DNA of 64,000 nucleotides from Spirogloea muscicola (GCA_009602725.1 WELB01000002.1:483780-547779), one strand, 5' to 3'; positions 7,501 to 38,300 are shown, counted from the first letter of the stretch. The notes: generated by a model from the sequence alone, not told the origin. Numbers and translations: made by a program.

Positions 7501-10500
7501 TTACCAGGTGGCACCGATTGAATTAGGAAACGTCAACCCAGCACCAAATGCTCCGAGATTCTGGAGCATCTCAACAACGTCTATCATTGTTGGCCTTTGT
7601 TTTGGGATATTGGAGCAGCAAAATAGCCCCGCTTTCAAGGCGCCCCGTATTTCGTCCACTTTCTTGGGGACGAATGGAGCTAGCGCCATATCAACACACT
7701 CCAACAGGCTTCTTCTGATTAAGGCAGGATCGCACCCACAAGATTAAGCTGCCACCAGCTGCAACCTCGGTCTGAAAGAAAGGGTCAACAGGCCGTTTGC
7801 CAGTGACAGTCTCCAGCAGCATCTCTCCAAAACTGAAGACATCGCTGTACTCGGTCAGTTGGCCTAGGGCGCAGTCTGGAGCGAGATACCCGATTGTGCC
7901 TGCCCATGTGCATCACCGTAACGTCATGAATTGCAGGAAAGATGACCCATGATCATTGCGAGGCAGTCTGAGGTGCCTCTACCAGCATGTATCAACACAT
8001 CCTTCTTGCACGATGCCAGAGAGCCTACGGTACAGCTCAACGGACATTGAAGGGCATATAAAGTTTACCTGCAGCCATGGTTGAAACGTGCGTTTCATGT
8101 GCCAGAAAGGCTCGTGCAAGCCCAAAATCCGCCACATAACCTTGACCATGTTCATCCAACAAGGTGTTGTTTGGCTTAACGTCCCTATGCAGCACACGAG
8201 GACTGCACTCATGATGCAGGTACTTAAGCCCAACTGCTGCATCCAACATGACCTTCATCCGTGCAGCCCAGTGATCAAACGCTTCTGGCTTTGGAGGCAC
8301 GCCCTGGCTCCCGTGCACCAAGTGGTCAAGATTTCCGCCAGGCAAGAAAGGATAGATGAGGAGCATGCCCGCTTGGCTGTCCCTGGGGATGTACCAGCCC
8401 TGTAGCGGGACCAAATTGCGATGTCTGATGCGACTCAGTGTCTCCACCTCGGCTTTCACCGATCGCAATCCTTCCTCGCTGTCTGCTGGTAGCCTCTTCA
8501 CTGCATACCTTTGGCCATTCTCCATCTGCGCACTGCTTAGCATCTCCATCGAAATGATCGTAAGTTTGTGTATACTTGACTTTAAGGAGAGGCCTGAACA
8601 ATTTGCACCAAGGATAGCACACCACCTTGCAAGTAGGCAAAGCTACTTACAAGTAGACTTTTCCAAAGCCCCCAATGCCAACTATAAAATCATCATTGAA
8701 GTTCTCAGTTGCATCCATGAGCTCCTTGAAGGTGAAGGGCGCATGGAGTCTATCCTGCGTGATGGACATCTCGGACCAGAAGTGCTGAATGCTCCGCTCC
8801 TTGTCTGGCATAGTCTTGTCCTTCGTCTTCCTCCAAGCTAAGCAGCACAGCAGGAGAAGTCCCAACAACAGGAGGAGAAGGACAACAGCCCCAACAACAA
8901 TGCCAGCAACTGCGCCCCCTGATAAGCTTGATGACTTGTGCACTGGAGGTGGTGGGGAAGGAGGATGAGGTGGGGGAGCTGTCTTGCAGGTCACATAAGG
9001 GCCGCCACACAAGCCGGCATTGCCAGAGAAGGAGCTGTTGCTGTACTGACCAATAGAACCGCCAGGAATGGGCCCACTGAGGTTGTTGTTTGAGTTATTA
9101 AAGAAGAGAGTAAGATTTAAATTCGCAAAGGACGCCGGAATGCTGCCATTGAGATCATTGTTGGAAAAATCGAGATAGGTAAGACTCGGCAGGTTGCCGA
9201 TACCCTCCGGTATGGGCCCACTGAATGAGTTGCTTGCCATCACCAGCTCTTGCAAGTTCTCCAGGTTGGAGAAGGTTGTCGGGATCGGTCCAGAGAGCTT
9301 GTTGCCAGCAAGCACGAGCCCCTTGAGCAGGACAAGCCTCCCCAACTGAGGCGGCACAAGGCCAGTTAACCTGCCAGTGATCCGGTTTAGCTGCTAAGAT
9401 TGCCAGCTGCGGCTCTTCTGCAATCTATGTATCTGCTGACACGGCAGATCAGGCAGCCTATGGCTGCATCAAAGACGCAGTCATTAGTCAGCTCCTTGCA
9501 AGGTCCAGGCAGCTACTGTTGCATGAGATAACCACAAAGTTTAGCATAGATATATGGCTGACACTTAGCAGAGGGCAGCTTCGAGCCTACTGGTTGTTGT
9601 TGACAGAAAGAACGCTGAGACTGGTGCAGTTCCCCAGCTCAGGCGGCAAAATACCAGTGAGGCTGCAATGCAAGGAAGAGCAAAGCTTAAATACAAAGTT
9701 GCCAGCATTTGGGCTATTACTGAACACAAATTGCAGTCAGCTCCTTTCAGGTCCGGGCAGCTACTCTCCATCTCTCGCTCTAGGTACTCTCCTTAAAATT
9801 GCTCACTTTGACAATGAGATGCAACCTTACGAGAATATAATATCACTTGTCATTGCCTGTTCTGGCACACACTGACACGTCATGAGAATAGCTGCAGGAA
9901 CAAAAAGTAGAACCCTCACAGCTCAATATAGCTGCACGGATCTTGATGATTTTTTTAGGAAACCTGGACCTGACTAAATCGCGATTCCAGATAGATCTCC
10001 CAAGCGCTGGCAAATTGCCATTACTGCATGCCAAGTGCATGCAGGAGGATGCACAGTAGTAGTTGCTGACCCTAATCACTATCAAGAATCCTGCTCATCA
10101 GAGCAGAAAGGTGTCTCCGCAATAAGCTGTGCATTTGCAACCCTCGAATCTGGTGAACCTTTGGCATGCTCACCTGTTGTCGTTGAGGTGGAGTTCGCCA
10201 AGCTGCGGGAGGCCACCCAGCCCCGGAGGGATGGGGCCCGAGAAAGAGTTGTAGGACAGATCTAAGTACGTCAGGTTGCCTATATTGGCAAGCTCCGGTG
10301 CCAGCGTGCCTTTGAATTGCCCGTCTCCCAGATAGAGGCCAGTCACTCGCCTGCAGATGTGTACAAGCGGCAAGCAGCGGAGAGAGCTGAGCTTGATCAG
10401 ATCTTGAACTCACACTGCACCTAGCAAGGAGCTCGCAGCAACGCTGCTGCTGGCTCTGAGGCCCTCCACGGAGCTGCCGCTAGTCCTGTGGCTGCAGAGG

Positions 10501-10987
10501 AGGCGGCCCTTGCAGGATCACGACCTCGACAAAGGCGGCCGCTGCGGGTACCAATGCTTTGCTCGATACGCTGCGGCGGCCTACTCGGACTAGGCCGGGC
10601 TCGGGACGAAGCTCTTGCCTGGGGCCGTCTACGTCGTCTCAGTCAACGGCGAACCAGTCGCACGGCGTGAGATCGGCGGGGTGCCAGTCGGTGAGGAAGC
10701 CATAGGGGTCGTCGGTGATGCCGGCCTTGAAGGCCAGCAGCGCAGCCAGGTCGGAGCTGCGTGGGAGAGAGTGACGAGCAGTCAGCCGTGGGGGGACACA
10801 CGATGGAATGCGGCTGCTGATAACGAAAGAGCGGCTGTGAAAGCCAAGCCAGGTGCACACAGCAGGTGCTCATGACGGAGCCACAAAGCGCAAGGGCTGC
10901 TCACGCGAGGCCCCCGGCGGCGGTCCCGAGGCGGCTGAGCAGCGCGACGGCGGCGAGCGCTGCGGCGGCGAGCGATGCGGCTGCCAT
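7501..10987 (-). pseudogene. LRR receptor-like kinase copy A (RD kinase), probably frameshifted near the C-terminus
   Basis: Signal-peptide exon (MAAASLAAAALAAVALL, ATG 10987), N-cap exon (LLAFKAGITDDPYG..W..C.W), LRR exons, one 72-nt LRR exon (~9591-9662), large LRR-TM exon (8647-9370) and kinase exons (AVKRL, HRDVKPNN, DFGLAR, GTIGYLAPD). An extra base at ~7705 (CCT-G-TTG-GAG vs CCA/CCT-TTG-GAG in copies C/D) causes a premature stop. Confidence 0.8.
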
Positions 10988-11610: not shown

Positions 11611-11839
11611 GGCTTGTCGTGCCGTATCCTGTCGACTGCTCATTTCTGTCGATCTGACTAGGACCGCTGACTGGGCTTCACACGTGACCTTACTAGGCTG
11701 ACTCATTCACTTCGGTGGGTGATTCACGCTGAGGATGAAGGACCACTTTTCTCCCTATGTGGCTCCTAGGCTGGGTCATACACTTTTGTGTGTGATTCAC
11801 GCTGACAATGGAGGTTCCACCCATCTCTGACTCTCGACG

Positions 11840-11870
<31 letters not shown>

Positions 11871-12808
11871 CGGCGGAGCGACTACAAGGGCCAATGCCCA
11901 CGCACGACGCCAACCTGCCGAAGACCGTTCAAAGCGCGACGAGGGAAGCCCATCTACAGGGACCTCAACCACCAACAAGACCGTCAAGGTGGGCGCTACC
12001 GAAGCAGTGGAAAGGCGACCGTGGAACAGACGGCCGAAGACCACCAACTCAAGGTCAGGTCGACCACTGGGTCGAATGAACGGCCCTGAGAGACCACCCT
12101 TTCCCCTTAGCCAACCAGCGAGCAGCGCACCTAGCCAATCAGGTAGCGCTAAGGTTTCACCGCATCCGGCCCATGTCGGAGCGCGCGAGCCCTGCCAAGC
12201 AGTTCGCTTGGCAAATCTCACCCTCCTGCCGCGCCTGCGCCCACCGCGCCTGTGCCGACCAAGCCTGCGTATACTCGCGCCTGCGTCCGCGAGAGCGTAG
12301 AGCCCGGCGCCCACGGCGTGCGCGCTTAGTGAGCGTTGCGCGAACCCGCTAGCGACTGCGAGAAGTCGTATTTCTTCTGTAGTGAGCAGCTTATCATTGC
12401 GCTGTTCTTGCGAGTCTTACCATCGGAGTGCTGTGCTCATTGCTTGTGCACACGTCTTTGCATTGGTTGCTTGTTTGCACGTAAGGCGCGCCCTTGAGGC
12501 CCCTTTACCATATTCACAAAAGGCGCGCCCTTGAGGCCCCTTTGAATATTGGTGGTGAACCTAGATAGGGCCGGTCTTCGGACGGTCGTGTGACTGAGAT
12601 ACTGGTGACGGGAAACTCGCGATACAGTGGCACGTTACTTTCATTTGCCAAGCGAACTCTGAGCTTGAGTTTATTGCATTGGATTGCTAGTACTTGCTTG
12701 AACTCTGCTCAAGGCTGCAAGTGCGACTGTTATCTCTGAGTTAGATTGTTGCCAGTGTTATCGATCAACTGTCGATTGCGTTGTGATCTGTTTTTCGGCT
12801 ACTATTGC

Positions 12809-15800
12809 ATGAGACTCAGGTCAGGCAATATCGTCAATCTGGAGCCTGAAGGTGAAGTTGCTTCGACAGACATTGATCTTGCATCTGAGCCAACTGGTAC
12901 TGCTGTTGCCGAATCACGTGTGGCGGCAGGTAGCTCAAGCGAGATCTCAACAACGATACGCTTTCGGAAAAGCATCAACATGGCATCAGGAGACTTGCCA
13001 AAATTCCAAGGTACACATAGCAGTGTTACTTTATCTGATGTGAAGAAACATTTCTTAGCAGAGTTGTGTCAACTGGACATGCACGGTTGCAAGGTCAGCA
13101 GGGAGTCGAAAATGACTTTACTAGCGAAGTATTTCACTGGGGACGCTGGATATATGTATGAGCAGCTTAGTGATGAGGTTTTGTCCATGACAAACCCAGT
13201 GCCTGAGTCGGCTACAGAGGTCGAAAAGCTGGCAGGTCCTCAACTAGTCGATCCTGTGGCCGAAGTCTTCCGTCGGTTCGCCAAGCAATTTCCAGAAGAC
13301 ACTCTGCAACACAAGCGAGATCTTCTTAGGTTCCAGCGAGAACCTAACGAGAATATAACAGTTTGTTATTTCAGATACGTGAAGCTGATAGAGAAGTCAG
13401 ACACCACTATCAGTCATCAGGATTTGGCGGCACAGTTCTTACGTGTTGTAGCTGGTAAAGCTCTCTGGCATGTAGTCGATTTATTGACTGTGCGCAGGCA
13501 ACAGCTCAACAAGAAACATTATGACATTCATGATGTCTATCAAGTCATGTTGGAGAGGGAGGCTGCAGAGTTCACTTTGAAAAGCTTAGATGATCGCTTT
13601 CCTGAAGTGTCCAATCCCTTCACCAGATCTGACAAGAAGTTTGGTGGTCCTGTGGTCAAGAAGCCCTTCACGAAGGCACATGTAGCCATCCCTGATGTGC
13701 AGCAGGTACCTGACCATTACAGACCTCGTCCGGCTGTGACTTGCCACAATTGTGGTAAGATTGGACACATGTCAAAACATTGTGCAGCTAGACATCAGAC
13801 TGCAGGTGCTACCTGTGGTCATTGTGCTAGATCAGGACATGTTGAGTCGCAATGTTGGCGAAAACACCCTGATAAATTGCCTGTACAATTTCGTGGCAAG
13901 AAGGCTTTGGAGATGGGAAAGCCTCCAGCTGACGGTGGTCGTGTGGATGGAGACCAACTACAGAAGTTGCAGAGACAGATTGAACAGCTGACACAACAGT
14001 TAGCTGCAAGCGAGATCAAGGCCAAGTCTAGTGCTAAGTCGGCCGCAGCTGCTGTTGTGCACTCAGATGTAGAAGAGGATGAGGATGACCTTGCAGGCAT
14101 GTATGAGGCTCAGTATGCAGCAGGGACTTCTCATAAGTATGGGTATTCTCACCTGGCATCGATTGTTGCTGCAGTACCGGAGTCTTCTAACACGGCAAGC
14201 AGAAACCCAATGAAGCGAGGTGAAAATGCTATGCAGCAACTTGCTAGGACCGGCAATGCTAGGTACCCTGCAAGTTTCAAATTGAAGGCCACTCAACCTG
14301 ACTTTCTTCTATCACAGCCTCAGCTTGTTGTGAAGTCCACAGAGCCGAAGGTTACTAATCCCACTTCACTTAGTTTTGATTGCACGTTGTCCGCTGGGAA
14401 GCTGTTGGACAGGTTGTACACAGCACCTGTTTTGAGCATCAACGACCTAGGATGGACGAAAGAGGCATTGAGTAACATGCTGACCAATACTGCAGTTGAG
14501 GTTGTGCAGAACTTGCAGACTACATCTGTCGGAACTGCCACCTACTCTGAGAATAGGGCACAGTCATGTGGTTTGGATATTGTGCCTCTCAGGTCATCGG
14601 AGGAACGAAAGAAACAGTTTTCCACAGTGACAATGCTAGATAATAGTTCAGGCATATTAGAGGTCAATGCAGTCAAGCCTAATGTCGTGTTGTTAGACAC
14701 AGGGGCTCAACCGATCCTTTTGGGTCGGCGTATGATCGCTGAACTGGGTCTAGACTCTTGTGACATAGCCCCCAGTAACATCAAGATTAAGACTGCTACT
14801 GGTGGTACAGATGCTATCTTAGGACTGACCAGAAAGCCAGTTCAAATTACTCTGTATGCCAATGTCCCTAGCAGACGGACTACTTTGTCAGTGATCTGCA
14901 TGATCACTAAAGCTAGAAGTTATGACATTCTGCTAGGAACTCAATTTCTGGTGCCCATAGGTTTCGGTATGGATTTTTACAGTGAAGCAGCTTGGTATAG
15001 ACCTGATTGGCTAAATGCTGGTACTGACATTGTCCCATTACCGTTGATGAAATCGTGTACCAATGCAGACATTGAGGCCAATGCAGGGGTGCCAACTACA
15101 GACGATGTTGTGGACAGTGAGGAGCTAATGAAGCAATTGGAGAATGGACTGGAGGGAACAGAGGAGCCAACTGAAGAGCAGTTGGCCAGTCTGAGAGATG
15201 AGCTGAGGGAGATGGAGGATGTGACTCCCCCAGCCAATTCGCCACCGACCGATGCACCAGCTATTGCTCCATTAGTCAATGTTCCATCAGCTGCTACTGC
15301 TATCACTGCTGCTGCTGCGACTGCCGCTGCTGCGACTGCCGCTGCTGCTATCACTACTGCTATCGCTACTGCTGCTGCGACTGCTGCTGCGGCGACTGCC
15401 GCTGCTGCTGTTACTACTGCTACTGCTGCTACTGCTACCGGTGCTGCTGCTGCAACTGCCGCTGCTTCTGCCACTGCTGCTGCTGCTACTACTGCTGCTG
15501 CTGCTGCACCACCAACGGCACCAGCACCACCAGCGCAGAATCCACCAGGTGGACAGAAGAGAGAAATTTCACCGGCGTTTCTACGTGCAGCACTTCAGCC
15601 TGCCAAAATGATGAAACCACTCACTGCAGCAGGACTGAGTGACAGGGACTTGGCAGAGTTGACCGTTGAGGAGAATTTCCGACGGTACCTTGCGATGTTA
15701 CCAGATTGGTCTGCCACGGCAGCAATTCGGGTGGAGGAAGCATGGACATTCAAAACTTTCAATGTTTCGATGACCAACCCAGGACAAAATGAAGAGGCAG

Positions 15801-16975
15801 CCGAAGATAGGAGATTCTACGCCGGAGTTATCCCTTTCGAGTTTGGAGAGCAGGGATTAGTGGTACTAGAGTTGTTTGGAGGCAGCGCCGCAGGGTTGGC
15901 GGGTTTGTTGCGCAGCCGCTACCGAATTGCGCAGTATATTTACGTGGATAATAATCCGGCCTCACGTGAAGCTGCAGCCCACCACATCTCCATACTCAAG
16001 GAGCGGTACAACCACCTGGTGACTCCAAATACGTTTGCAACCTGGGATACTCTACTCCCAGGAGATATCCGGGAAGCGGAGAAAGTGGAGTACCTCAAAC
16101 TCTTACCCCAGGTGGACCTGGTTATCGCAGGCTTCCCTTGCGAGGGCTTCAGCCCTGCAGGCCGAGGGGAGGGATTCGGTCATGTCAACTCAGCCCTTTT
16201 CTTCCCAATGCTACGCATCCTAAAACATATCCGTAGCAGACAAAGGAAGCCCATGGCTTACATAATAGAAAATGTACAGCCAGATGATGATGCCATTGAT
16301 GCGAACAACCATTTCCGTAGGTTGTATCACATATTGGGTCCTTTTGTGACCTTAGATGCGGCAAGGGTTAGCTCGTTAGCCGACCGGAAAAGAATTTTTT
16401 GGACAAATCTGGCACCTGCGCAGCTCCTGCAAGCCTGCATCAACGGCCAGGAACGACATGACAACGCCAGGGTTGAGCTCATCCTTGATGCCGGACGGAG
16501 GGTACCACTGGTCACACTTCAAGCGACACAACATCCAGTGAACCGTCCAGGACAAGTGCGATGCACTTTACCGACCTTGGTGGCTTCTGACAAGTCTGCC
16601 GGATTCAGAATCCGGAATGGTATCATTGGTCAGGGCATGATCCTCGTTTCGCCTGTGAATACTCCAGATGTTTATGCTACGCCAACACCTCGCGAACGCG
16701 AGAAAAGCATGGGCTTCTGGCCTGGCGACATCACTCCCCATCACTTCCCTGATGTGCTCAAAAATCGTATCATAGGTCAAGCCTTTGATCTTAATGCCAT
16801 TACCTGGTTGGCTAGTGTGCTTGGTCGCTTACAGACTAAGTATCGCATGCTGAGAGTAGCGTATGAGCGTAGTCTTCTACCTCCACCTCAAGGTTCTCCA
16901 ATGTCGGTGATTGATAGGCGCATGCTGACCCTATTCCGATTTGTTGAAGCAGAGAGGGAAGAGGATGACGAATAG
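12809..16975 (+). CDS. ORF1: Gag (two CCHC knuckles) - aspartic protease - Ala/Thr linker - C5 cytosine DNA methyltransferase
   Basis: Likely start MRLRSG (ATG 12809; frame open from 12746); CHNCGKIGHMSKHC and CGHCARSGHVESQC; LLDTGAQ protease motif (~14690); DNMT motifs downstream. Confidence 0.9.
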   Translation: MRLRSGNIVNLEPEGEVASTDIDLASEPTGTAVAESRVAAGSSSEISTTIRFRKSINMASGDLPKFQGTHSSVTLSDVKKHFLAELCQLDMHGCKVSRESKMTLLAKYFTGDAGYMYEQLSDEVLSMTNPVPESATEVEKLAGPQLVDPVAEVFRRFAKQFPEDTLQHKRDLLRFQREPNENITVCYFRYVKLIEKSDTTISHQDLAAQFLRVVAGKALWHVVDLLTVRRQQLNKKHYDIHDVYQVMLEREAAEFTLKSLDDRFPEVSNPFTRSDKKFGGPVVKKPFTKAHVAIPDVQQVPDHYRPRPAVTCHNCGKIGHMSKHCAARHQTAGATCGHCARSGHVESQCWRKHPDKLPVQFRGKKALEMGKPPADGGRVDGDQLQKLQRQIEQLTQQLAASEIKAKSSAKSAAAAVVHSDVEEDEDDLAGMYEAQYAAGTSHKYGYSHLASIVAAVPESSNTASRNPMKRGENAMQQLARTGNARYPASFKLKATQPDFLLSQPQLVVKSTEPKVTNPTSLSFDCTLSAGKLLDRLYTAPVLSINDLGWTKEALSNMLTNTAVEVVQNLQTTSVGTATYSENRAQSCGLDIVPLRSSEERKKQFSTVTMLDNSSGILEVNAVKPNVVLLDTGAQPILLGRRMIAELGLDSCDIAPSNIKIKTATGGTDAILGLTRKPVQITLYANVPSRRTTLSVICMITKARSYDILLGTQFLVPIGFGMDFYSEAAWYRPDWLNAGTDIVPLPLMKSCTNADIEANAGVPTTDDVVDSEELMKQLENGLEGTEEPTEEQLASLRDELREMEDVTPPANSPPTDAPAIAPLVNVPSAATAITAAAATAAAATAAAAITTAIATAAATAAAATAAAAVTTATAATATGAAAATAAASATAAAATTAAAAAPPTAPAPPAQNPPGGQKREISPAFLRAALQPAKMMKPLTAAGLSDRDLAELTVEENFRRYLAMLPDWSATAAIRVEEAWTFKTFNVSMTNPGQNEEAAEDRRFYAGVIPFEFGEQGLVVLELFGGSAAGLAGLLRSRYRIAQYIYVDNNPASREAAAHHISILKERYNHLVTPNTFATWDTLLPGDIREAEKVEYLKLLPQVDLVIAGFPCEGFSPAGRGEGFGHVNSALFFPMLRILKHIRSRQRKPMAYIIENVQPDDDAIDANNHFRRLYHILGPFVTLDAARVSSLADRKRIFWTNLAPAQLLQACINGQERHDNARVELILDAGRRVPLVTLQATQHPVNRPGQVRCTLPTLVASDKSAGFRIRNGIIGQGMILVSPVNTPDVYATPTPREREKSMGFWPGDITPHHFPDVLKNRIIGQAFDLNAITWLASVLGRLQTKYRMLRVAYERSLLPPPQGSPMSVIDRRMLTLFRFVEAEREEDDE
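15854..16810 (+). other. C5 DNA methyltransferase catalytic domain (DNMT3-like appearance) within ORF1
   Basis: Motifs in canonical order: I VLELFGG, II YVD, III GDI, IV DLVIAGFPCEGFS, VI IIENV, VII DAA, VIII RKRIFWTNL, IX EREKSMGF, X IGQAF. Confidence 0.9.
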
Positions 16976-16981
16976 CAATTA
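16973..16981 (+). promoter_or_regulatory. Stop-codon readthrough signal UAG-CAA-UUA between ORF1 and pol
   Basis: TAG CAA TTA matches the tobamovirus-type UAG-CAR-YYA leaky-stop consensus; the same frame stays open from 16976 to 20089. Confidence 0.8.
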
Positions 16982-19900
16982 CAATGTGTAGCCCATACTG
17001 CTGATAAATCCATTGTTGAGTACAAGTGGCAGCTGGGTCTTCAGTTGAGTGATGAACAGAGGCATCGACTAACGATAATGCTTCAGGAGAATATTGCATG
17101 TTTTGCTTTCTCGGCAGCTGACTTAGGTACTTATGTGGGTGCCAAGTTCCAAATTAAACTCAGTGACGACAAGCCTATCTTCCGGAAGAGGTATACCTTG
17201 TCTCCATATGAGGATGAGCTTGTAGCGAAGAGATGTCAAGAACTGCTTGCTCTTGGTATGATAGAACCATCTAATAGTTCTTTTGCAGCACCTACAGTCC
17301 TACCAGCGAAGAAAGACGAGCATGGCAACTATACTGACAGACGCATGTGTGGTGACTACCGGTTGCTGAATGCAAATACACCCTTGGATAGGTATCCAAT
17401 GCCCACTCCGGAAGAGATTTTTAATCGCATAGGTTCTGCAAAGCTTTTCTCTGTCTTGGATTTGAAAAATGGGTTCAATCAAATTGCAATTGAGCCTGAT
17501 GATAGACACAAGACTGCATTCTGGGGCGTAGATACACTATATCAATGGACAAAGATGCCGTTTGGACTGAAGAATGCACCGTCTATGTTTCAGCGTGTTA
17601 TGGACCAGGTGTTGAAAGGAGTTCCATACGCCAAATGTTACATAGACGATGTTCTGATATTCAGTCATGAATTTGTTGAGCATGTGACTCATATTGACTC
17701 TGTTCTTAAGATGATACAGAGTTCAGGTTTGAAGTGCCATCCAGGAAAATGCCGGTTTGCACTCACTGAGGTCCATTATCTTGGGCATCAGATAACAGAG
17801 AATGGTCTTTCTCCGCAAGATAGCAAGGTGCAAGCAATCCTGTCCATTCCTGCACCTACCAATCTTACATCTTTGAGATCGTTTTTAGGACTTGCCAGTT
17901 TCTATCGTCGGTATATTGAGCATTTTAGCTCTTTGGCTCGTCCTCTCAACAGTCTGCTCAAAAAGAATACGCCTTGGCTATGGGGATCGGAACAGGAACA
18001 CGCTTTTTGCCAGTTGAAGCATTCACTGACAACAGCTCCTGTTTTACGACGTCCTGATTATGCTAAAGAGTTCCAGTTGCATACAGACTGGAGCAAACTC
18101 GGCATGGGAGCTGTACTTGTGCAGCAGGACGAAGATCACCATGATTATGTCATTGCTTATGCAAGTCGTTCTAACAATGCTGCCCAACGTAATTACTCTG
18201 CTTATGAAGGCGAATGTCTTGCAGCTGTTTGGGCTGTCACGCATTTTAGACCGTACTTATATGGACGACCTTTCAAGCTCGTCACAGATCATCAACCTTT
18301 GAAGTGGTTACTGACCACTAATCATTTGACTGGCAAACTCGCCCGATGGGCACTACGTTTGACAGAATATAAGTTTGAAATTGTTCATAAGCCAGGACTG
18401 CAGAATCTGGACGCAGATGCTCTGAGCCGCAACCCTATACCGGCAACTATGGATGAGCAATTCGCCTTGCTTTCAATTGCTATTGTGTCAGTACCTCTGA
18501 GTAGTCCTGCTTCTTACCTGGCATGCTTTGCTATGCATTCGCCACATGCCTGTGCTATAGACGGCCCTGATGATACCTTCTTTTCCAAAGATGTTTGGCT
18601 GGATCTGCCTGCACTTCATTACCTACAGAATGGCATGTATCTACCTCATCTTTCTACCATACAGAAGGATCGGGTAAAACACCGGGCCCGACGCTATGTC
18701 TGGCAAAACAATCAACTTGTTCGTCCGCATGAGGAATACGGAAACCAGGTTGTTCCTCCTCCTGCTGAACGCTTACAACTCGTCCAAGATGTTCATACGA
18801 ATTATGGACACTTCGGTGTAAAACGTACAATCAGTCTTCTCATGCCTAGATATTGGTGGCATGGTGTGACCAACACTGTTAAACAGGTTCTGTCACAATG
18901 TGAGGAATGCGACCGCATCCGTAGCACATTCTCCCTGAAGTCTCCAGTATTACATCCTTTGCCAATTGAAGGGCTCTTTTACAGATGGAGTCTTGATTTG
19001 GCGGGACCACTTCGACTGGGTGAACGGCAAAGGCCGTATGTTCTCATTATGATCGAGCATTTCTCTAAATGGGTAGAAGTTGTTATTATTCCTACCAAAA
19101 CTAGTGAACTCATCGCTGATGCTTTCAAGAATGCTGTGCTCACCCGGTATGGTGCTCCAGCAGAAGTGCTTACTGATCGAGGCACTGAATTCAAGGGTGC
19201 CTTTCAGCAGCTGTTGGACCGCAGCTTCATTGATCACCGTCTTACATCAAGGGATCATCCGCAGGCTGATGGTTTAGCAGAGCGGATGGTGCAGACGATA
19301 AAGAAAGGTTTGATGAAATATGTGATGAAACATGGCATGGAACGCTGGGACCAATTTTTACCATGGCTGATTATGGGCTATCGAATGTCAAACCAGACTT
19401 CTCTGTCTTGCTATAGTCCCTATTTTCTGCTATTCGGTCGACACCCTGTCATTCCATCTAACATCCGTCTTGTCAGTAACGACGTAAACCTGGATAACCC
19501 AGTGATTTGGTACAAGGTCTGCGCGGCCAGAGGCAAACTCTTCCAGAAGCATATGCCGATGGCCCTGAACAACTTGCGTATCGCTCAGCATCGGGATACT
19601 AACAGGTACGCTACCATTCGTAGTGGTGGGTACAAACCACAGTCTAAAGACATTGATCTTGGTGACTTTGTGTATGTGAAGGTGAAACCACAAGACGCCT
19701 TAGACTCTTCAACAGGACCTCTCATCCTTCAGGTTGTTGAGAAACACTCTTCAGGTGTGGTTAAACTTCGTGGTTCATGCAATCGTGTAATCAGTGATCA
19801 TGTTCAAAATGTTACACGTTGTCATCTGAGCAATATTGATCCAACCATTGACCCCACTAACCAATGGGTTTCTGAGAATCTATCTTGTGAACTTTGTCAG

Positions 19901-20089
19901 CGTTCCGATCAGGCAGTTCAAATGCTTTTATGTTCTCTTTGCAATAGGGGTTTCCATATACACTGCCTTGATCCACCACTGACTTCTATTTCACTGGCTG
20001 ATTGGTTCTGTGTGACCTGTTCAGATACTTTCCTAACTGCTCCACCTGTGCCAGGACTGACACTTGGGGGGGGGGGAACTACAGATTAA
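16976..20089 (+). CDS. pol: Pol: reverse transcriptase - RNase H - DDE integrase - C-terminal PHD finger
   Basis: RMCGDYRLLN, LDLKNGFNQI, MPFGLKNAP, YIDD (RT); TDWS...E...TDH...DADALSR (RNase H); H-H-CEEC, DLAG, TDRG, AERM (integrase); C4HC3 PHD at 19886-20020. Confidence 0.95.
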   Translation, partial: QLQCVAHTADKSIVEYKWQLGLQLSDEQRHRLTIMLQENIACFAFSAADLGTYVGAKFQIKLSDDKPIFRKRYTLSPYEDELVAKRCQELLALGMIEPSNSSFAAPTVLPAKKDEHGNYTDRRMCGDYRLLNANTPLDRYPMPTPEEIFNRIGSAKLFSVLDLKNGFNQIAIEPDDRHKTAFWGVDTLYQWTKMPFGLKNAPSMFQRVMDQVLKGVPYAKCYIDDVLIFSHEFVEHVTHIDSVLKMIQSSGLKCHPGKCRFALTEVHYLGHQITENGLSPQDSKVQAILSIPAPTNLTSLRSFLGLASFYRRYIEHFSSLARPLNSLLKKNTPWLWGSEQEHAFCQLKHSLTTAPVLRRPDYAKEFQLHTDWSKLGMGAVLVQQDEDHHDYVIAYASRSNNAAQRNYSAYEGECLAAVWAVTHFRPYLYGRPFKLVTDHQPLKWLLTTNHLTGKLARWALRLTEYKFEIVHKPGLQNLDADALSRNPIPATMDEQFALLSIAIVSVPLSSPASYLACFAMHSPHACAIDGPDDTFFSKDVWLDLPALHYLQNGMYLPHLSTIQKDRVKHRARRYVWQNNQLVRPHEEYGNQVVPPPAERLQLVQDVHTNYGHFGVKRTISLLMPRYWWHGVTNTVKQVLSQCEECDRIRSTFSLKSPVLHPLPIEGLFYRWSLDLAGPLRLGERQRPYVLIMIEHFSKWVEVVIIPTKTSELIADAFKNAVLTRYGAPAEVLTDRGTEFKGAFQQLLDRSFIDHRLTSRDHPQADGLAERMVQTIKKGLMKYVMKHGMERWDQFLPWLIMGYRMSNQTSLSCYSPYFLLFGRHPVIPSNIRLVSNDVNLDNPVIWYKVCAARGKLFQKHMPMALNNLRIAQHRDTNRYATIRSGGYKPQSKDIDLGDFVYVKVKPQDALDSSTGPLILQVVEKHSSGVVKLRGSCNRVISDHVQNVTRCHLSNIDPTIDPTNQWVSENLSCELCQRSDQAVQMLLCSLCNRGFHIHCLDPPLTSISLADWFCVTCSDTFLTAPPVPGLTLGGGGTTD

Positions 20090-20289
20090 AATTCGACTGT
20101 TCTTGACTTGTCCATGGTGCTGTGATGTCTGGCATGGTTCCTTAGCAGATGGATTTTCATGACAGTCTGGTCAAAGTAGCCAATATTCTCGTTTGGCTTG
20201 TGTGTACACCAAACTAGCAAGTCGGCATTTCTCTTCTTCTAGACCTATCGACGCCATCTCGCACCGACGCCCTCGCGCGTGACAGGCTC

Positions 20290-20776: not shown

Positions 20777-20999
20777 GTGGGCAGCCCGTCCTCCTCCGTC
20801 CACTTCTGGCCACTTCAGTCGCTGTGTGCTCTAACGATTGTCCGGCCCCTTCGTTCATTCCTTTTCTGGGCTGGCCTCTCCCAGCCACCGCGCTCTCATG
20901 GAAGCATCTTACTTTCGAACTTCATTCATCCTGTTATTTGCGCTGGCCGATCACAGCCATCGCCCTCTACAAGGCCCGAAAGGGCCGGGCAGTCAGCCT

Positions 21000-23261
21000 T
21001 CCGAGGTCCGGGCAGCTTTTGTTGCATGAGATTTTCAAAAAGCATAGCAGAGAAATATTGTTAAATTTGGGCAGAGGGCAGCTTCGAGCCTACTGGTTGT
21101 TGTCGACAGACAGAACACTGAGACTGGTGCAGTTTCCCAGCTCAGACGGTAAGATACCAGTGAGGCTGCAATGCAAGGAAGAGCAAAGCTCACATACAAA
21201 GTCGCCAGCATCTGCGCTTTCCCTAAGCACAAATTGTCAGCTCCTTTCAAGGTCCGGGCAGCTACTGTTGCATGAGATAAGCAAACAGTATAGCAGAGAT
21301 AAATGGCTGACACTTGGCAGAGGGCAGCTTCGAGCCTACTTGTTGTTGTTGACAGAAAGAACACTGAGGCTGGTGCAGTTCCCCAGCTCAGACGGTAAAA
21401 TACCAGTGAGGCTGCAATGCAAGGAAGAGCAAAGCTCACAAACAAAGTCGCCAGCATCTGGGCCTTTTTTTAGAACACAATCTGCAGTCAGCTCATTTCA
21501 AGGTCCGGGCAGCTCCTGTTGCATGAGATATCCAAACAGTACAGCAGAAATATATGGCTGACACTTGGCAGAGGGCAGCTTCGAGCCTACTGGTTATTGT
21601 CGACAGAAAGAACTCTGAGCCTGGGGCAGTTTCCCAGCTCAGATGGTAGAATACCAGTGAGGCTGCAAGGCAAGGAAGAGCAAAGCTCACATACAAAGTC
21701 GCCAGCATCTGGACCTATTGTTAAACACAATCTGCAGTCAGCTCCTTTCAAGGTCCGGGCAGCTACTGTTGCATGAGATATCCAAACAGTACAGCAGGAT
21801 TATATAGCTGACACTTGGCAGAGGGCAGCTTCGAGCCTACTGGTTGTTGTTGACAGAAAGAACGCTGAGAGAGGTGCAGTTGCCCAGCTCAGACGGTATG
21901 TTACCCGAGAGGCTGCAATGCAAGGAAGAGTAAAGCTCACATACAAAGTCGCCAGCATTTGGGCTTTTACTAAATACAAATTGCAGTCAGCTCCTTTCAG
22001 GTCTGGGCAGCTACTCTTCATCTACTGCTCTAAGTACTCTCCTACATGTTGGTCAATCTGACAATCAGATGCAACCTTACAAAGAATACATGATCACTTG
22101 TCATTGCCTGTCCTGCCACACACTGACATGTCATGACAATAGCTGAACATAATAGAAGCAAAACTCTCACGGCTCAACATAGCTGCACATCTCCTAATGA
22201 ACTTTTGAGGAAACCTGTTCCTGACTAAAGCTCGATTTCAACTAGATCTCCAGAACGCTGGCAAATTCCCATTAGTGCATGCCAGTGCATGCAGGAGGAT
22301 GTACAGTAGTAGTTGCTGACTCTAATCACCAGATGAAATCCTGCTCATCTGAGCATAAAGAATCCTCTGCAATAAGCTGTGCATCTGCAACCCTCAGATA
22401 TGGTCAACCTTTGGCATGCTGACCTGTTGTCGTTGAGGTAGAGTTCGCCAAGCAGCGGGAGGCTACCCAGTGCAGGAGGGATGGGGCCCGAGATACAGTT
22501 GTTTGACAGGTATATGTTGTACAGGCTGTCAACATTGGCAAGCTCCGGTGCCAGCGTGCCGTTCATTTGCCCGTCGTTCAGAAAAAGCCCAATCACTAGC
22601 CTGCACGTGTGTACCAGCGGCCAGCAGCGGAGAGAGCTGAACTTGATCGGTCTTGGACTCACACTGCACCTCGCAAGGAGCTCGCAAATACGCTGCTTGC
22701 TCAGTAGCCCTCCACTGAGCTGCCGCTAGTCCTGTTGCTGCAGAGGAGGCGGGCCCTGCAGGGTCACGACCTCGACTCTGGCGGCCGCTGGAGTTAACAA
22801 TGCTTGTGCACTGCCTGATTTCGTTATCGTTGTCGCACAAAACACCGTGCCAGTCGCACGGCCAGTTATGACTGGTGAGGCGCCAGTCGGTGAGATAGCC
22901 ATAGGGGTCGTGGGTGATGCGAGCCTTGAAGGCCAGCAGCGCAGCCTGGTAAGAGCTGCGCGGGTGAGGATGACGGGCACTCAGCCGGGGAGGGGGGCAC
23001 ACGGAGGCCCACGCAGCTGTGGCGCTGGAGTGCAGCCGCAGCAGGGAGCCCGACGGCGAGTGTGGCGGACGAGGAGAGGGCTCGCAGGCGCAATGTGCTT
23101 CGTTTGGGAGAGCCACTTGATGCTCTAGGCGCAATGTGCTTCCTGGCGCAGGAGTAGCCGCGGCGCGGAAGGGCTGCTCACTTGAGGTCCCCGGCGGTGG
23201 CGGAGCCGAGGCGGGTGAGCAGCGCGACGGCGGCGAGCGCTGCGGCTGCCATGCTCGCCAT
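21000..23261 (-). pseudogene. LRR-RLK copy B, 3'-truncated (signal peptide, N-cap, 2-LRR exon, four tandem 72-nt LRR exons; no TM or kinase)
   Basis: MASMAAAALAAVALLTRL; AALLAFKARITHDPYG; GTLAPELANVDSL; four ~247-bp units with acceptors near 21913, 21663, 21412, 21165; homology ends at a TE mosaic near 21000. Confidence 0.8.
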
Positions 23262-23579
23262 GGCGGGCCCGCGGGAGCCCCTCCCGGGCGGCGGCGGCGG
23301 CGGGCCAGGGCGGGCGTAAGTCAAGACGGGGCTTTCGGAGAAGTGGCTTCTCCAAAGGGGGGCAAGGGCTGTGAATGAGAGCACCCAGCGGCCACTTGAG
23401 TCATGTGCTTTTAACGCTTTCGTGCCATCCGGCCCTTTCGGGCCTTGCACATTCCTTTGGGCTGGCCTCTCACAGCCGCTGCCGTATGTGGAAGGGCTGT
23501 TTTTTCTATGCGGCCCCTTTCGGACCTTGTCAAACCTTTTTCCGCTGGCTGTTCACAGCCCTTGCCCCCCTTGCACACC

Positions 23580-32330: not shown

Positions 32331-35300
32331 TTACCCGGTGGCACCGGTTGACTTAGGAAACGTCAACCCAGCACCACATGATTCGAGATTCTGGAGCATC
32401 TCAACAACGTCAACCATCGTTGGCCTTTGTTTTGGGATATTGGAGCAGCAAAATAGCCCAACTTTCAAGGCGCCCCGTATTTCGTCCACTTTCTGGGGGA
32501 CGAATGGAGCTAGCGCCATATCAACGCACTCCAATGGCTTCTTGTGATTAAGGCATGATCGCACCCACAAAATTAAGGTGCCACCAGCTGCAACCTCGGT
32601 CTGAAAGAAAGGGTCAACAGGCCGTTTGCCAGTGACAGTCTCCAGCAGCATCACTCCAAAACTGAAGACATCGCTGTACTCGGTCAGTTGGCCTAGGGCG
32701 CAGTCTGGAGCGAGATAACCGATTGTGCCTGCCCATGTGCATCACCATGACGTCATGAGTTGCAGGAAAGATGACCCATGATCATTGCGCGGCAGTCTGA
32801 GGTGCCTCTACCAGCATCTACCAACACATCCTTCTTGCACGGTGCCAGAGAGGCCTACGATACAGCTCAGCAGACATTGAAAGGCAGTAAAAGCTACCTG
32901 CAGCCATGGTTGAAACGTGCGTTTCATGTGCCTGAAAGATTCGTGCAAGCCCAAAATCGGCCACGTAACCTTGACCATGTTCATCCAACAAGGTGTTGTT
33001 TGGCTTGACGTCCCTATGCAGCACACGAGGACTGCACTCATGATGCAGGTACTTAAGCCCAACTGCTGCATCCAATATGACCTTCATCCGTGCAGCCCAG
33101 TGATCAAACGCGTCTGGCTTTGGAGGCACGCCCTTGCCCCCGTGCATCAACTGGTCAAGATGTCCGCCAAGCAAGAAAGGGTAGATGAGGAGCATGCCCG
33201 CTTGGCTGTCCCTGGGGATGTACCAGCCCTGTAGAGGGACCAAATTGCGGTGTCTGATGCGACTCAGTGTCTCCACCTCAGCTTCCACCGATCGCAATCC
33301 TTGCTTGCTGTCTCCTGCTAGCCTCTTCACTGCATACTTTTGGCCATTCTTCATCTGCGCACTGCTCAGCATATCCATACAAATGATGTATAGATTTGTT
33401 TGAGGCCATATTTTAGGGAGAGGCCTGGACAAGCAACACCAAGAAAAACACACCACTTGCAAGTGGGGAATCCACTTACCCGTAGACTTTTCCGAAGCCC
33501 CCGAAGCCAACTATCAACTTTTCATTGAAGTTCTCAGTTGCATCCATAAGCTCCTCCAAGGTGAAGGGAGCTTGTAATATATCCTGCGTGATGGACATCT
33601 CGGAGCAGAAGTGCTCAAAGGTCCGCTTGTCTGGCATAGTCCTGTCGTTCTTCTTCTTCCAAGCTAAGCAGCACAGCAGGAGAAGTCCCAGCAACAGGAG
33701 GAGAAGGACAACAGCCCCAACAACAATGCCAGCAATTGCCGCCCCCGATAAGCTCGACGATTTGTGCTCTGGAGGTGGTGGGAAAGGCGGAAGAGAACGA
33801 GGTGGGGGAGCTATCTTGCAGGCCAAATAAGGGCCGCCACATAAGGCGGCATTGCCAGAAAAGGAGCTGCTGTTGAAATGACCAATAAGACCGTCTGGAA
33901 TAGGCCCACTGAGGTTGTTGTTGGAGATGTTAAAGAAGATGAGGCGACCCAGATTTGCAAAAGACGCCGGGATGCTGCCGTTGAGCTTGTTGTCAGAAAG
34001 GTCGAGACTGATCAGATCCGGCAGACTGCCAATGTCAACAGGTATGGGCCCGCTGAATAAGTTGCTTGCAGCCGAAAATGTGAAGAGGTAGAATAAATTT
34101 CCAATCTCCAGGGGGAGACTGCCTGTTAGGCGGTTGCTGGAGATGTCTAGGTTTTGAGCAATTTGCAGACCCCCAATGCTCGCAGGTACACCTCCGGTCA
34201 AATTGTTGTGATCTAGGTGAACACTCAATGCACTGCTTAGGTTGCCTAGCCACGCTGGAAATGGGCCAGATAATTTGTTATTGTCCATCTTCAGCACTTG
34301 CAATTTCTCCAGATTGGAAAAGTTTGTCGGAATCGGTCCAGAGAAGTTGTTGCCAGCAAGCCAGAGCTCCTTGAGCAGCACAAGTTTCCCCAACTGAGGC
34401 GGCACAAGGCCACTTACCCTGCCAGTTGGAAGTGAGCCGCTAAGATTGTCAGCTGTGGCTCCTGCAATTTATGTATCTGCTGACACGGCAAATCAGGTAA
34501 ACTATGGCTGCATCAAAGACGCAGTCACCAGTGAGCTCCTGTCAAGGTCCTGACAGCTACTGTTGCATGAGATATCCAAACAGTATAGCAGAGATGTATG
34601 GCTGACACTTGGCAGAGGGCAGCTTCGAGCCTACTGATTGTTGCTGACAGAAAGATAGCTGAGACTGGTGCAGTTCCCCAGCTCAGATGGTAAGATACCA
34701 GTGAGGCTGCAATGCAAGAAAGAGCAAAGCTCACATACAAAGTCGCCAGCAATTGGGTTTTCCCTTACACAAATTGCAGTCAGCTCCTTCAAGGTCCAGG
34801 CAGCTACTGTTGCATGAGATATCTAAACAGTATAGCAGAGATATACGGCTGACACTTGGCAGAGGGTAGCTTCAAGCCTACTGGTTGTTGTTGACTGAAA
34901 AAAAGCTGAGACTGGTGCAGTTCCCCAGCTCAGACGGTAAAAAACCAGTGAGGCTGCAATGCAAGGAAGAGCAAAGCTCACATGCCAGCATTTGGGCTTT
35001 CCCTAAACACATATTTCAGTCAGTTTTTTTCATGGTCCGGGCAGCTACTGTTGCATGAGATATTCAAACAGTACAGCAGTGATAAGTGGCTGACACCCGG
35101 CAGAGGGCAGCTTCGAGCCTACTGGTTGTTGTCGACAGAAAGAAGATTAAGTCTGGTGCAGTTCCCCAGCTCGGATGGCAGAATACCAGTGAGGCTGCAA
35201 GGCAAGGAAGAGCAAAGCTCACACACAAGATTGCCAGCATTTGGGCTTTCATTCAACACAAACTGCATTCAGCTCCATTCAAGGTCCGGGCAGCTACTGT

Positions 35301-38300
35301 TGCCCGGACCTTTAGAAAGGTCCGGGCAACAGTGTAGCAGAGATATATGACTGACACTTGGCAGAGGGCAGCTTCGAGCCTACTGGTTGTTGTTGACAGA
35401 AAGAAAGCTGAGACTGGTGCAGTTCCCCAGCTCAGACGGTAGAATACCAGTGAGGCTGTAATGCAAGAAAGAGCAAAGCTCACATACAAAGTTGCCAGCA
35501 TTTGGGCTTTTCCTACATACAAATTGCAGTCAGCTCCTTTCAAGGTCCGGGCAAGCTACTGTTGCATGAGATATCCAAACAGTATAGCAGAAGTATATGG
35601 CTGACACTTGGCAGAGGGCAGTTTCGAGCCTACTGGTTGTTGTCGACAGAAAGCACGCTGAGACTGGTGCAGTTCCCCAGCTCAGACGGTAGAATACCAG
35701 TGAGGCTGCAATGCAAGGCAGAGTGAAGCTCACATACAAAGTCGCCAGCATTTGGCTTTTACTTAACACAAATTGCAGTCAGCTCCTTTCAAGGTCCGGG
35801 CAGCAACTGTTGCAGGAGATATCTAAACAGTATAGCAGAGATATGTGGCTGACACTTGGCAGAGGGCAGCTTCGAGCCTACTGGTTGTTGTCGACAGAAA
35901 GAACAAAAGACTGGTGCAGTTCCCCAGCTCAGGCGGCAAAATACCGGTGAGGCTGCACTGCAAGGAAGAGCAAAGTTCACATAAAAATTTGCCATCATTT
36001 GGGCTTTCACTCAACACAAATTGCAGTCAGCTCTTTTCAAGGTCCGGGCAGCTACTGTCACATAAGATATCTAAACAGCATAGCAGAGACATACGGCTGA
36101 CACATGGCAGAGGGCAGCTTCGAGCCTACTGATTGTTGTTGACAGAAAGAATTCTAAGACTGGTGCAGTACCCCAGCTCAGGCGGTAAAATACCGGTGAG
36201 GCTGCAATGCAACGAAGAGCAGAGCTCACATACAAAGTCGCCAGCATTTGGGCTTTTACCAAGCACAAATTGCAGTCAGCTCCTTTCAAGGTCCTGGCTA
36301 CTGTTGCATGAGATACCCGAACAGCATAGCAGAGATTTATGGCTGACACTTGGCACAGGGCAGCTTCGAGCCTACTGGTTGTTGTTGACAGAAAGATAGC
36401 TCAGACTGGTGCAGTTCCCCAGCTCAGGCGGCAAAATACCAGTGAGGCTGCAATGCAAGGAAGAGCCAAGCTCACATACAAGGTCGCCAGCATTTGGGGT
36501 TTTTGTAAAGACAAATTGCAGTCAGCTCCTTTCAAGGTCCGGGCACCTACTGTTGCATGAGGTCTCCAAACATTATAGCAAAGACATATGGCTGACACTT
36601 GGCAGAGGGCAGCTTCGAGCCTACTTGTTGTTGTTGACAGAAAGAAAATGGAGACTGGTACAGTTCCCCAGCTCAGACGGTAGAATACCAGTGATGCTGC
36701 AATGCAAGGAAGAGCAAAGCTCATTCTACAAATGTCGCCAGCATTTGGGCTTCTACTGAACACAAATTGCAACCAGCTCCTTTCAAGGTACGGGCAGCTA
36801 CTGTTGCATGAGATATCCAAACAGTATAGCAGAGATGTACGGCTGACACTTGGCAGAGGGCAGCTTCGAGCCTACTGATTGTTGTCGACAGAAAGAACGC
36901 TGAGACTGGTGCAGTTCCCCAGCTCAGACGGTAAATGACCAGTGAGGCTGCAATGCAAGGCAGAGCAAAGCTCACATACAAAGTCGCCAGCATTTGGGCT
37001 TTTACTTAACACAAATGGCAGTCAGCTCCTTTCAAGGTCCGGGCAGCAAATGTTGCATGAGATATCCAAACAGTATAGCACAGATATGTGGCTGACACTT
37101 GGCAGAGGGCAGCTTCGAGCCAAACTGGTTGTTGTCGACAGAAAGATAGCTGAGACTGGTGCAGTTTCCTAGCTCAGGCGGCAAAATACCAGTGAGGCTG
37201 CAATGCAAGGAAGAGCAAAGCTCTCATACAAAGTTGCCAACATTTGGGCTCCTACTAAACTGAAAGTTGCAGTCAGCTCCTTTCAAGGTCCGGGCAGCTT
37301 CTGTTGCATGAGATGACCAAACAGCATAGCAGAGATGCATGGCTTGACACTTGGCAGAGGGCAGCTTCGAGCATACTGGTTGTTGCTGACAGTAAGAACG
37401 CTGAGACTGGTGGAGTTCCCCAGCGCAGGCGGTAAAATACCAGTGAGGCTGCATTGCAAGGAAGAGCCAAGCTCACATACGAAGTCGCCAGCATTTGGGC
37501 TTCTACTAAACATAAATTGCACTCCACTCCTTTTAGGTCCAGGCAGCTACTCTTCATGTACTGCTCTATGTAGTGTCCTCAATGATGGTTACTCTGGCAT
37601 TCAGATGCAACCTCATGAAAAGACAATATCACTTGTCATTGCCTGTTCTGCCACATACTGATACGTCATAACAGTAGCTGCACAACATAGAAGCAGGACC
37701 CTCACGGCTCCACATAGCTGCACATGTCATGGACTTTTGAGGAAACCTGTTCCTGACTAAGGCCCGATTTCAGCTACATCTCCCAAGCGCTGGCAAATTC
37801 CCATTACTGCATGCCAGTGCATGCAGGAGGATGCACAGTAGTAGTCGCTGACCCTAGTCACTATCAAGAATCCTGCTCAACAGAACATGAAGGTATCTCA
37901 ACAATAAGCTGTGCATCTGCAAGCCTAAAATGGTTAACCTTTGGCATGCTGACCTGTTCTCGTCGAGGTAGAGTTCGCGGAGCTGCGGGAGGCTACCCAG
38001 CGCCGGAGGGATGGGGCCGGAGAAAGAGTTACCAGACAGATATATGGACGTCAGGCTGCCAATACTAGCAAGCTCCGGTGCCAGCGTGCCTTCCAACTTC
38101 AAGTCCTCCAGATTGAGCCCAATCACTCGCCTGCAAATGTGTACCAGCGGCCAGCAGCAAAGAGAGCTGAGCTTGATCAGATCTCGAACTCACACTGCAC
38201 CTCGCAAGGAGCTCGCAACAACGCTGCTGGCTCAGAAGCCCTCCACGGAGCTGCCGCTAGTCCTGTGGCTGCAGAGGAGGCGGGCCCTGCAGGCTCACGA

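Follow-up and report, generated by a model that had tools for sequence, protein, structure and literature searches.

What does a retroelement gain from encoding a cytosine methyltransferase, and with which of its own proteins is that enzyme made? Both questions are raised by a locus in a 64,000-nucleotide stretch of Spirogloea muscicola DNA (GCA_009602725.1 WELB01000002.1:483780-547779), referred to below as the window, for which a preliminary description had proposed a retroelement-encoded C5 DNA methyltransferase (DNMT). This identification is borne out, as the domain lies between a zinc knuckle and protease on one side and reverse transcriptase (RT), RNase H, integrase and a PHD finger on the other. 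The description had also granted that such a capture is not in itself new, and the acquisition of DNMT3 by streptophyte gypsy elements is indeed already published (PMC5890265) and restated in later work. The reading that we favour, at a probability of roughly 0.55, is that the DNMT3-like domain, placed ahead of a conserved leaky stop, would be made together with Gag and protease, packaged, and used to methylate newly made cDNA.

The window contains an intact Ty3/gypsy-type element of 8,670 bp (11615-20284). In comparison with two non-coding copies elsewhere in the window, similarity begins sharply at 11615 (TGTCGTGC) and stops at 20284 (GCGTGACA); GGCT flanks both of these ends, making the element an insertion with a 4-bp target duplication. 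The right end, GCGTGACA, is an imperfect 8-bp inverted repeat of the left one. Two open frames share a single phase and directly adjoin, 12740-16975 (1411 codons) preceding 16976-20089 (1037 codons); Pfam places a zinc knuckle, an aspartic protease and DNA_methylase on the first, and RT, RNase H, integrase and a PHD finger on the second. The order of protease, RT, RNase H and integrase is that of Ty3/gypsy elements, and TG...CA ends, a short target-site duplication and a polypurine tract are all present. The features of the element and of its non-coding derivatives are as follows:

11611-11614 (+): target-site duplication GGCT, left, 4 bp; the same four bases lie beyond the right end
11615-12808 (+): 5' non-coding terminal region A, starting with TGTCGTGC, without a repeat at the 3' end (similarity to the window copies, comparison of the ends)
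12809-16975 (+): ORF1, comprising Gag, two CCHC-type knuckles, aspartic protease, Ala/Thr linker, DNMT, a 46-residue tail and TAG; 12809 is the first ATG and the true start could be 12980
13742-13855 (+): zinc knuckles, the first a Pfam zf-CCHC match below cut-off, the second read from the sequence
14663-14950 (+): aspartic protease, with DTG at residues 653-655 (Pfam E 0.00027, below cut-off; sequence)
15275-15532 (+): low-complexity Ala/Thr-rich linker from protease to DNMT (sequence)
15854-16849 (+): DNMT3-like C5-cytosine methyltransferase domain, motifs I to X unpermuted (Pfam, profile, AlphaFold2, Foldseek, VIA)
16973-16981 (+): in-frame TAG followed by CAATTA, the UAG-CARYYA read-through context (sequence; motif as given in PMC4132726)
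16976-20089 (+): ORF2, in the same frame as ORF1, comprising RT (YIDD), RNase H, an integrase with HHCC and D-D35-E (D734 to E769 of ORF2) and a C-terminal PHD finger
20066-20078 (+): polypurine tract G11AA, also kept in the non-coding copy near 48620
20079-20284 (+): 3' terminal region B, ending with GCGTGACA (similarity boundary to the window copies)
20285-20288 (+): target-site duplication GGCT, right, 4 bp
48407-50482 (-): non-coding derivative with the same two termini and a 4-bp duplication GCTG, 74% identical to the 5' region and 93% to the 3' region
52467-53775 (-): second, more diverged non-coding derivative with the same termini, flanked by GCGG and GGGG

The PHD finger that closes the integrase (19886-20020) is canonical and resembles those of MLL3/4, ATXR5, CHD4, KAT6A, DPF3, BAZ2 and UHRF1. 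Unmodified H3 tails are the ligand of many PHD fingers in this set. PHD fingers are also known from Chlamydomonas gypsy elements (PMC9940879). No tRNA genes were found within the 64-kb window.

The methyltransferase domain starts at G1039 of the 1411-codon frame (window position 15854), as the preliminary description had it, but extends to about residue 1370 (about 16849) rather than ending at 16810. The PC, ENV and RxR motifs, which had been reported as intact, are all in place: motif IV reads GFPC, with the Cys1134 codon at 16139-16141, motif VI ENV (16268-16276, Glu1177) and motif VIII R-K-R (16385-16393, Arg1216 and Arg1218). Motif I reads FGGSAAG (15875-15895), motif II YVD, motif III GDI and motif X GQAFD (near 16775-16789); in the sequence and the predicted model, the SAM-binding motifs I, II, III and X and the two-domain fold are all present. 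The earlier characterization of motif I as slightly atypical is apt in comparison with bacterial enzymes only, for DNMT3A has FDGIATG at this place, and the family as a whole mostly has FGG[LIM][CGA]AG, with FGGTANG in the closest relative. Since FGGSAAG matches the DNMT3A version, the motif has not decayed.

The HMM search that had been suggested as a check matched Pfam DNA_methylase at E 6.7e-12 (45.9 bits against a cut-off of 22), and the profile of a 66-row alignment favoured DNMT3A (E 1.4e-28), followed by DNMT3B/C, over DRM (3.5e-15) and HhaI (1.1e-10). An AlphaFold2 model of the domain, obtained with a 66-row alignment (pLDDT 94.7, pTM 0.93) and used as the query in Foldseek, returned DNMT3 proteins in all of the top rows (DNMT3A/3B, E 3.8e-16), and structural alignment with VIA ranked DNMT3B first (Z 28.1, rmsd 2.8, 279 residues), ahead of DNMT3A (26.3), M.MpeI (25.4) and HhaI (22.6). 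A comparison of single sequences, made without a profile, placed HhaI slightly above DNMT3A over a short stretch only. Judged by profile and predicted fold, the domain is nearest to DNMT3, ahead of DRM, DNMT1, DNMT2, DNMT5 and bacterial enzymes, the trees described below being of element sequences only, and its unpermuted motif order sets it apart from DRM. Human DNMT3A and DNMT3B, which give the best profile and fold matches and agree with the window domain in the contexts of motifs I and VIII, nevertheless share only about 20% identity with it; the window domain lacks PWWP and ADD domains, and the PHD finger of its element sits on the integrase, unlike in DNMT3A/3B.

HMMER recovered 385 cluster representatives at E-values up to 1e-10, and the layouts were drawn from the 150 listed of these 385 matches. 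Two layouts occur among the matches listed, namely type A, with the order protease-DNMT-RT, and type B, with the order RT-RNase H-DNMT-integrase-PHD (for example P0005, P0053, P0079 and others, and the loci L139, L142-L146, L160 and L161). Type A includes proteins of Klebsormidium nitens, Closterium and S. muscicola, those of S. muscicola being the closest among the matches listed, at about 50% identity. Type B is the larger of the two and includes a pol protein from the chlorophyte Scenedesmus sp. PABB004 (KAF8056149.1). A quick DNMT tree of element sequences only (17 type-A and 27 type-B rows; every third row, with short and duplicate rows dropped) separates the two types with an SH-aLRT of 99, and the RT tree agrees; in the DNMT tree the window falls on the same side as K. 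nitens, at the end of a long branch (1.71). The split would fit either a move of the DNMT within the element or two separate gains. Within this DNMT family, P0101, P0108, P0131 and P0152 form a small clade of their own that lacks the usual gypsy neighbours and may represent non-gypsy carriers; judged by eye, P0101 appears to run on into a LINE-type RNase H, and in P0108 a PHD finger precedes the DNMT. Word-based protein searches recovered only two and one relatives, and neither an alignment-based protein search limited to proteins of 3830-5000 residues nor a metagenome scan with the single window protein recovered any. Two scans of viral contigs (96 loci) gave only partial, low-identity methyltransferase matches with E-values no better than 7e-14, and hence no close viral source is seen.

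In the aligned relatives the catalytic Cys is kept in 158 of 160, the Glu in 161 of 161 and the two Arg in 157 of 160 and 153 of 159. Six diverged pairs of related loci (dS 0.27-1.8) have a dN/dS of 0.10-0.16 for the DNMT and 0.03-0.05 for RT; two close pairs of decayed copies give 0.45-0.6, as expected after insertion, and in pairs that include the window the synonymous sites are saturated. Neutral decay of the domain across copies, which the preliminary description had raised as the finding that would count against it, is thus not seen, the DNMT being under purifying selection in related elements. The window domain itself deviates at 7 of 46 highly conserved columns, none of them catalytic (median 2 among 137 rows), and at least two of the seven deviations recur in relatives from Spirogloea (H to D before RxR, and loss of the Gly at 1060). 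These deviations could be taken, along with the lack of methylation by the K. nitens enzyme in yeast, a result that its authors deem inconclusive (PMC5890265), to mean that the DNMT is kept as a non-catalytic module for binding or shielding DNA, and that the window enzyme is inactive. We consider this decidedly unlikely in view of the presence of all catalytic and SAM-binding positions, which are nearly invariant in about 160 relatives. The window enzyme is probably active.

With which protein this enzyme is made depends on the stop that follows it; the preliminary description had noted neither this stop and its read-through signal nor the missing LTR pair of the element. ORF1 ends at a TAG 46 residues past the last DNMT motif, followed directly by CAATTA and then by the open RT frame. 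This is the single stop in the 2,448 codons from Gag to PHD and it falls at the DNMT/RT boundary; the first Met of ORF2 comes only at codon 35, inside a conserved pre-RT region. UAG-CARYYA is described as the signal by which tobacco mosaic virus and other plant viruses achieve read-through (PMC4132726), and its read-through is given as 6-10% in stable Arabidopsis lines and as 32% in a reporter assay of the same paper (PMC2754532).

The conservation of this stop was assessed in the best 80 of 133 metagenome loci and the window, of which 42 (41 metagenome loci and the window) have a readable DNMT-RT junction. A stop lies at most 40 codons from the RT match in 38 of these 42, and 35 of the 38 continue with CAR-YY, six of them with the full CARYYA (the window, L097, L098, L099, L100 and L167). 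Three loci have a stop in range that is not followed by CAR-YY (L108, L140 and L141), and no stop near RT is present in three decayed copies (L133, L165 and L171) and in L176. In the window, L097 and L099 that stop is the only one from protease to PHD, a distance of more than 5 kb in L097 and L099. Most of the 35 CAR-YY loci are copies of one decayed family with the context CAACCC, one base off the motif, which leaves about three independent lineages, whose RTs are 47-51% identical to that of the window. As a control, we inspected 482 decay stops inside domains, not all of them independent of each other: CARYYA follows none and CARYY follows seven. Among the 2,448 in-frame hexamers of the window ORFs, CARYYA occurs six times. 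The hexamers seen after the conserved stop are CAATTA, CAATCA, CAGTTA and CAACCA, with L, S, L and P, respectively, as the second residue, and the elements in which they vary are 47-51% identical to the window in RT and 34-39% in the DNMT, with synonymous sites saturated. As the hexamer varies only within the motif while the encoded residue changes, the constraint would appear to act at the nucleotide level. RNA structure 3' of the stop is unsupported for the window (z 0.02), with one of ten loci falling below -2.

Five representatives of the same order (P0015, P0019, P0031, P0033 and P0137) have DNMT and RT in one continuous frame, and might suggest that the TAG is an ordinary nonsense mutation in the once continuous Gag-Pol frame of a dead copy. 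However, the stop recurs with CAR-YY at a matching position in divergent elements, is the sole stop in the intact ones, and has a full context that was found after none of the decay stops; on these sequence comparisons the nonsense-mutation explanation is already largely refuted, and we regard it as exceedingly improbable. The window TAG carries the complete UAG-CARYYA signature, i.e. the motif, an open and conserved downstream frame, and retention in relatives, and read-through at this position is very likely.

Such a stop is a feature of some of these elements. Ten type-B loci have no read-through stop ahead of RT, and in the type-B loci L144, L160 and L161 the DNMT lies in a Pol frame that is closed shortly upstream of RT; given these Pol-frame DNMTs and the fused type-A frames, a capsid-level dose of the enzyme is not universal. 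The distant type-A locus L176 (1805) has an in-frame TAG about 20 codons past the DNMT, followed by GGT GCT and lying 86 codons before RT, which is possibly a second type of read-through. P0066, P0149, P0106 and P0134 terminate 8-12 residues past the DNMT.

Because the domain precedes a stop with a read-through signal, the window enzyme would be set at the level of the capsid and not at that of Pol. Most ribosomes would stop at the TAG and yield a Gag-protease-DNMT protein, and a minority, of a few percent, would go on to add RT, RNase H, integrase and the PHD finger. Along with Gag, the abundant DNMT would be packed into the particle; once released by the protease at the Ala-rich linker, it would methylate cytosines in fresh cDNA ahead of integration, probably those in a CG context, the one also targeted by related DNMT3 domains. 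Should the enzyme be active, we lean towards its being packaged and acting on the element's own cDNA, with somewhat less assurance than for the activity itself. Self-methylation of cDNA is a hypothesis already published, in a study that also describes CG methylation de novo by SymbioDIRS-Dnmt3 domains in yeast (PMC5890265). Since CG-only methylation in K. nitens marks active gene bodies, with CHG and CHH methylation found on silent elements (PMC5890265), a CG coat could disguise an incoming copy, and the likely benefit would be that the new copy arrives with the CG-only mark of active gene bodies. The observed/expected ratio of CpG is 0.67 in the element and 0.67 in the window, with no element-specific depletion, and because these ratios are equal the composition gives no sign of self-methylation.

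The stop might instead merely set the usual ratio of Gag to Pol, with the DNMT lying upstream of it by chance and working on cDNA at any dose. In-frame stops are described as keeping Pol low in other retroelements (bioRxiv 10.1101/2022.12.06.519325), and both the fused type-A elements and the type-B elements place the DNMT differently, some of them in a separate Pol frame. However, the stop of the stop-bearing clade follows both protease and DNMT, and is not at the Gag/protease border as described for fission-yeast elements; its position is kept across lineages at about 50% RT identity; and the single-frame L143, L146 and P0079 would also yield DNMT at the level of Gag. We view this account as possible, if doubtful. 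Alternatively, the main target of an abundant DNMT could be found outside the particle, in host chromatin or in further copies of the element, with self-limitation or interference with host silencing as the outcome. The product without RT would be plentiful, DNMT3-type domains are described as methylating chromosomal DNA in yeast, and host-level effects are raised in the published discussion (PMC5890265). Nevertheless, translation of the DNMT within the capsid polyprotein points to the particle, and the K. nitens methylome is reported as plant-like, with no sign of stray activity (PMC5890265); action chiefly outside the particle is in our view unlikely.

No direct repeat was found between the two ends of the window element, and it hence has no LTR pair, being organized as A-coding-B only. 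A relative, L162 (1679-10805, duplication AAGG), has the order A-coding-B-A-B, with A1 at 1679-2011, the coding region, a polypurine tract, B1 at 10239-10350, GC, A2 at 10353-10685, TTTTCAAT, and B2 at 10694-10805. Of 25 loci that have integrase and PHD, 7 contain the B1/A2 joint, GACA-NN-TGTC, and these represent both architectures (beside L162, at L097:8235, L099:8656, L123:6624, L131:5182, L139:5080 and L163:4754), and two further loose matches to it look like chance. In sequence, B plus A looks like a true LTR, with TG after the tract and CA at its end, and the genomic ends would consequently lie inside the LTR. Three origins would account for the A-coding-B form of the window: recombination of B1 with B2, insertion of a one-LTR circle that had opened at the joint, or a collapse in the assembly. 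By analogy with retroviral biology, an RNA of the window copy without A2 would likely lack the end repeat for strand transfer; with the 3' copy of A missing, this copy is likely unable to finish strand transfer on its own RNA, and it could supply proteins in trans.

A more extended scheme, for a green-lineage clade of gypsy elements, would join the loading of DNMT3 through a leaky stop of viral type with full methylation of the cDNA before entry, integration of LTR circles opened at an internal GACA-NN-TGTC in place of the usual linear cDNA, and a choice of chromatin by the PHD finger. Under it, a two-LTR circle would give rise to A-coding-B-A-B and a one-LTR circle to A-coding-B, as in the window. 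We regard this scheme as conceivable but less likely than not.

In the element SIRE1, env is reportedly expressed by read-through of an in-frame leaky stop. The UAG-CARYYA of tobacco mosaic virus is likewise a leaky stop that lowers the dose of a downstream enzyme (PMC4132726, PMC2754532), and the in-frame gag/pol stops of Tj1, Tosmo1-3 and Tca2 also lower the downstream dose (bioRxiv 10.1101/2022.12.06.519325, PMC3441728). The fission-yeast elements, as described there, have a TGA-CT stop at the boundary of Gag and protease, whereas in the window TAG-CARYYA comes after the protease and a captured enzyme. KnitGypsy-Dnmt3 of Klebsormidium nitens (de Mendoza 2018, PMC5890265) shares with the window element the gypsy domain set, a Dnmt3-like domain with intact motifs and a streptophyte host lineage. 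The K. nitens element is described as having DIRS-like repeats (PMC5890265), an arrangement also found in the relatives of the window, in full as the A-coding-B-A-B of L162, whereas the window copy is A-coding-B; and the DNMT of KnitGypsy-Dnmt3 is, as published, in one frame with RT and RNase H, whereas in the window the same frame is split by the conserved TAG. The window element works like KnitGypsy-Dnmt3 but departs from it in these two published features, the single ORF with RT and, in this copy, the full A-B-A-B. Among K. nitens proteins, GAQ93235.1 (P0066) is homologous (E 7e-31, 31%), has the order Gag-knuckle-protease-DNMT and falls on the same side of the DNMT tree as the window, and we infer that it is one of the elements of PMC5890265; it too ends shortly past the DNMT, after 10 residues, in a record marked as partial. 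SymbioDIRS-Dnmt3 and SymbioLINE-Dnmt, from the same publication (PMC5890265), are likewise borne by retroelements, but unlike the window element the former, which is DNMT3-type and CG-active, belongs to the tyrosine recombinase class, and the latter, a cytosine methyltransferase, to the LINE class. EpiLTRs are described as carrying a DNMT4-sister enzyme with Dam and a chromodomain (bioRxiv 10.64898/2026.05.21.726589), whereas the window element has a DDE integrase and a PHD finger and no Dam.

In the published model the transposon DNMT is tied to Pol and acts once, beside reverse transcription (PMC5890265). If the conserved stop downstream of the DNMT is leaky, the enzyme would instead outnumber RT by several-fold to tens-fold and travel as capsid-linked cargo, with a change in both the amount made and the partner protein. 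The role of transposon DNMTs would become directly testable, with stop-bearing, fused and DNMT-in-Pol relatives as natural controls. Gene callers break such elements in two at the stop, and their split repeats make LTR finders overlook them. Our literature search, whose coverage mostly excluded subscription journals, did not find the leaky stop after the DNMT, the chlorophyte type-B layout or the internal joint; the ORF layout may be shown in the Supplementary Information of PMC5890265.

The element sits within a cluster of plant-type LRR receptor-like kinase copies (LRRNT_2, LRR and kinase matches), located at 8037-9393 (-), 22529-23320 (-), 32818-34468 (-) and 42034-43717 (+), with 250-bp repeat arrays nearby (9494, 20997-21981 and 34538-37517). 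Taken with the relatives of the element, these kinase genes make a streptophyte alga the most likely host. Long flanking repeats with a spacing of about 12 kb were considered as LTRs of the element and rejected, as they lie outside the target duplication and are part of the LRR-kinase gene copies. Upstream of gag there is a hairpin with a C-TTCG-G loop (12560-12600), which is kept twice in the non-coding derivative (about 49080-49150, minus strand) and, judged by eye, is a possible packaging or priming signal. The 5' non-coding region also contains a perfect 16-bp inverted repeat (12201-12216 and 12643-12658).
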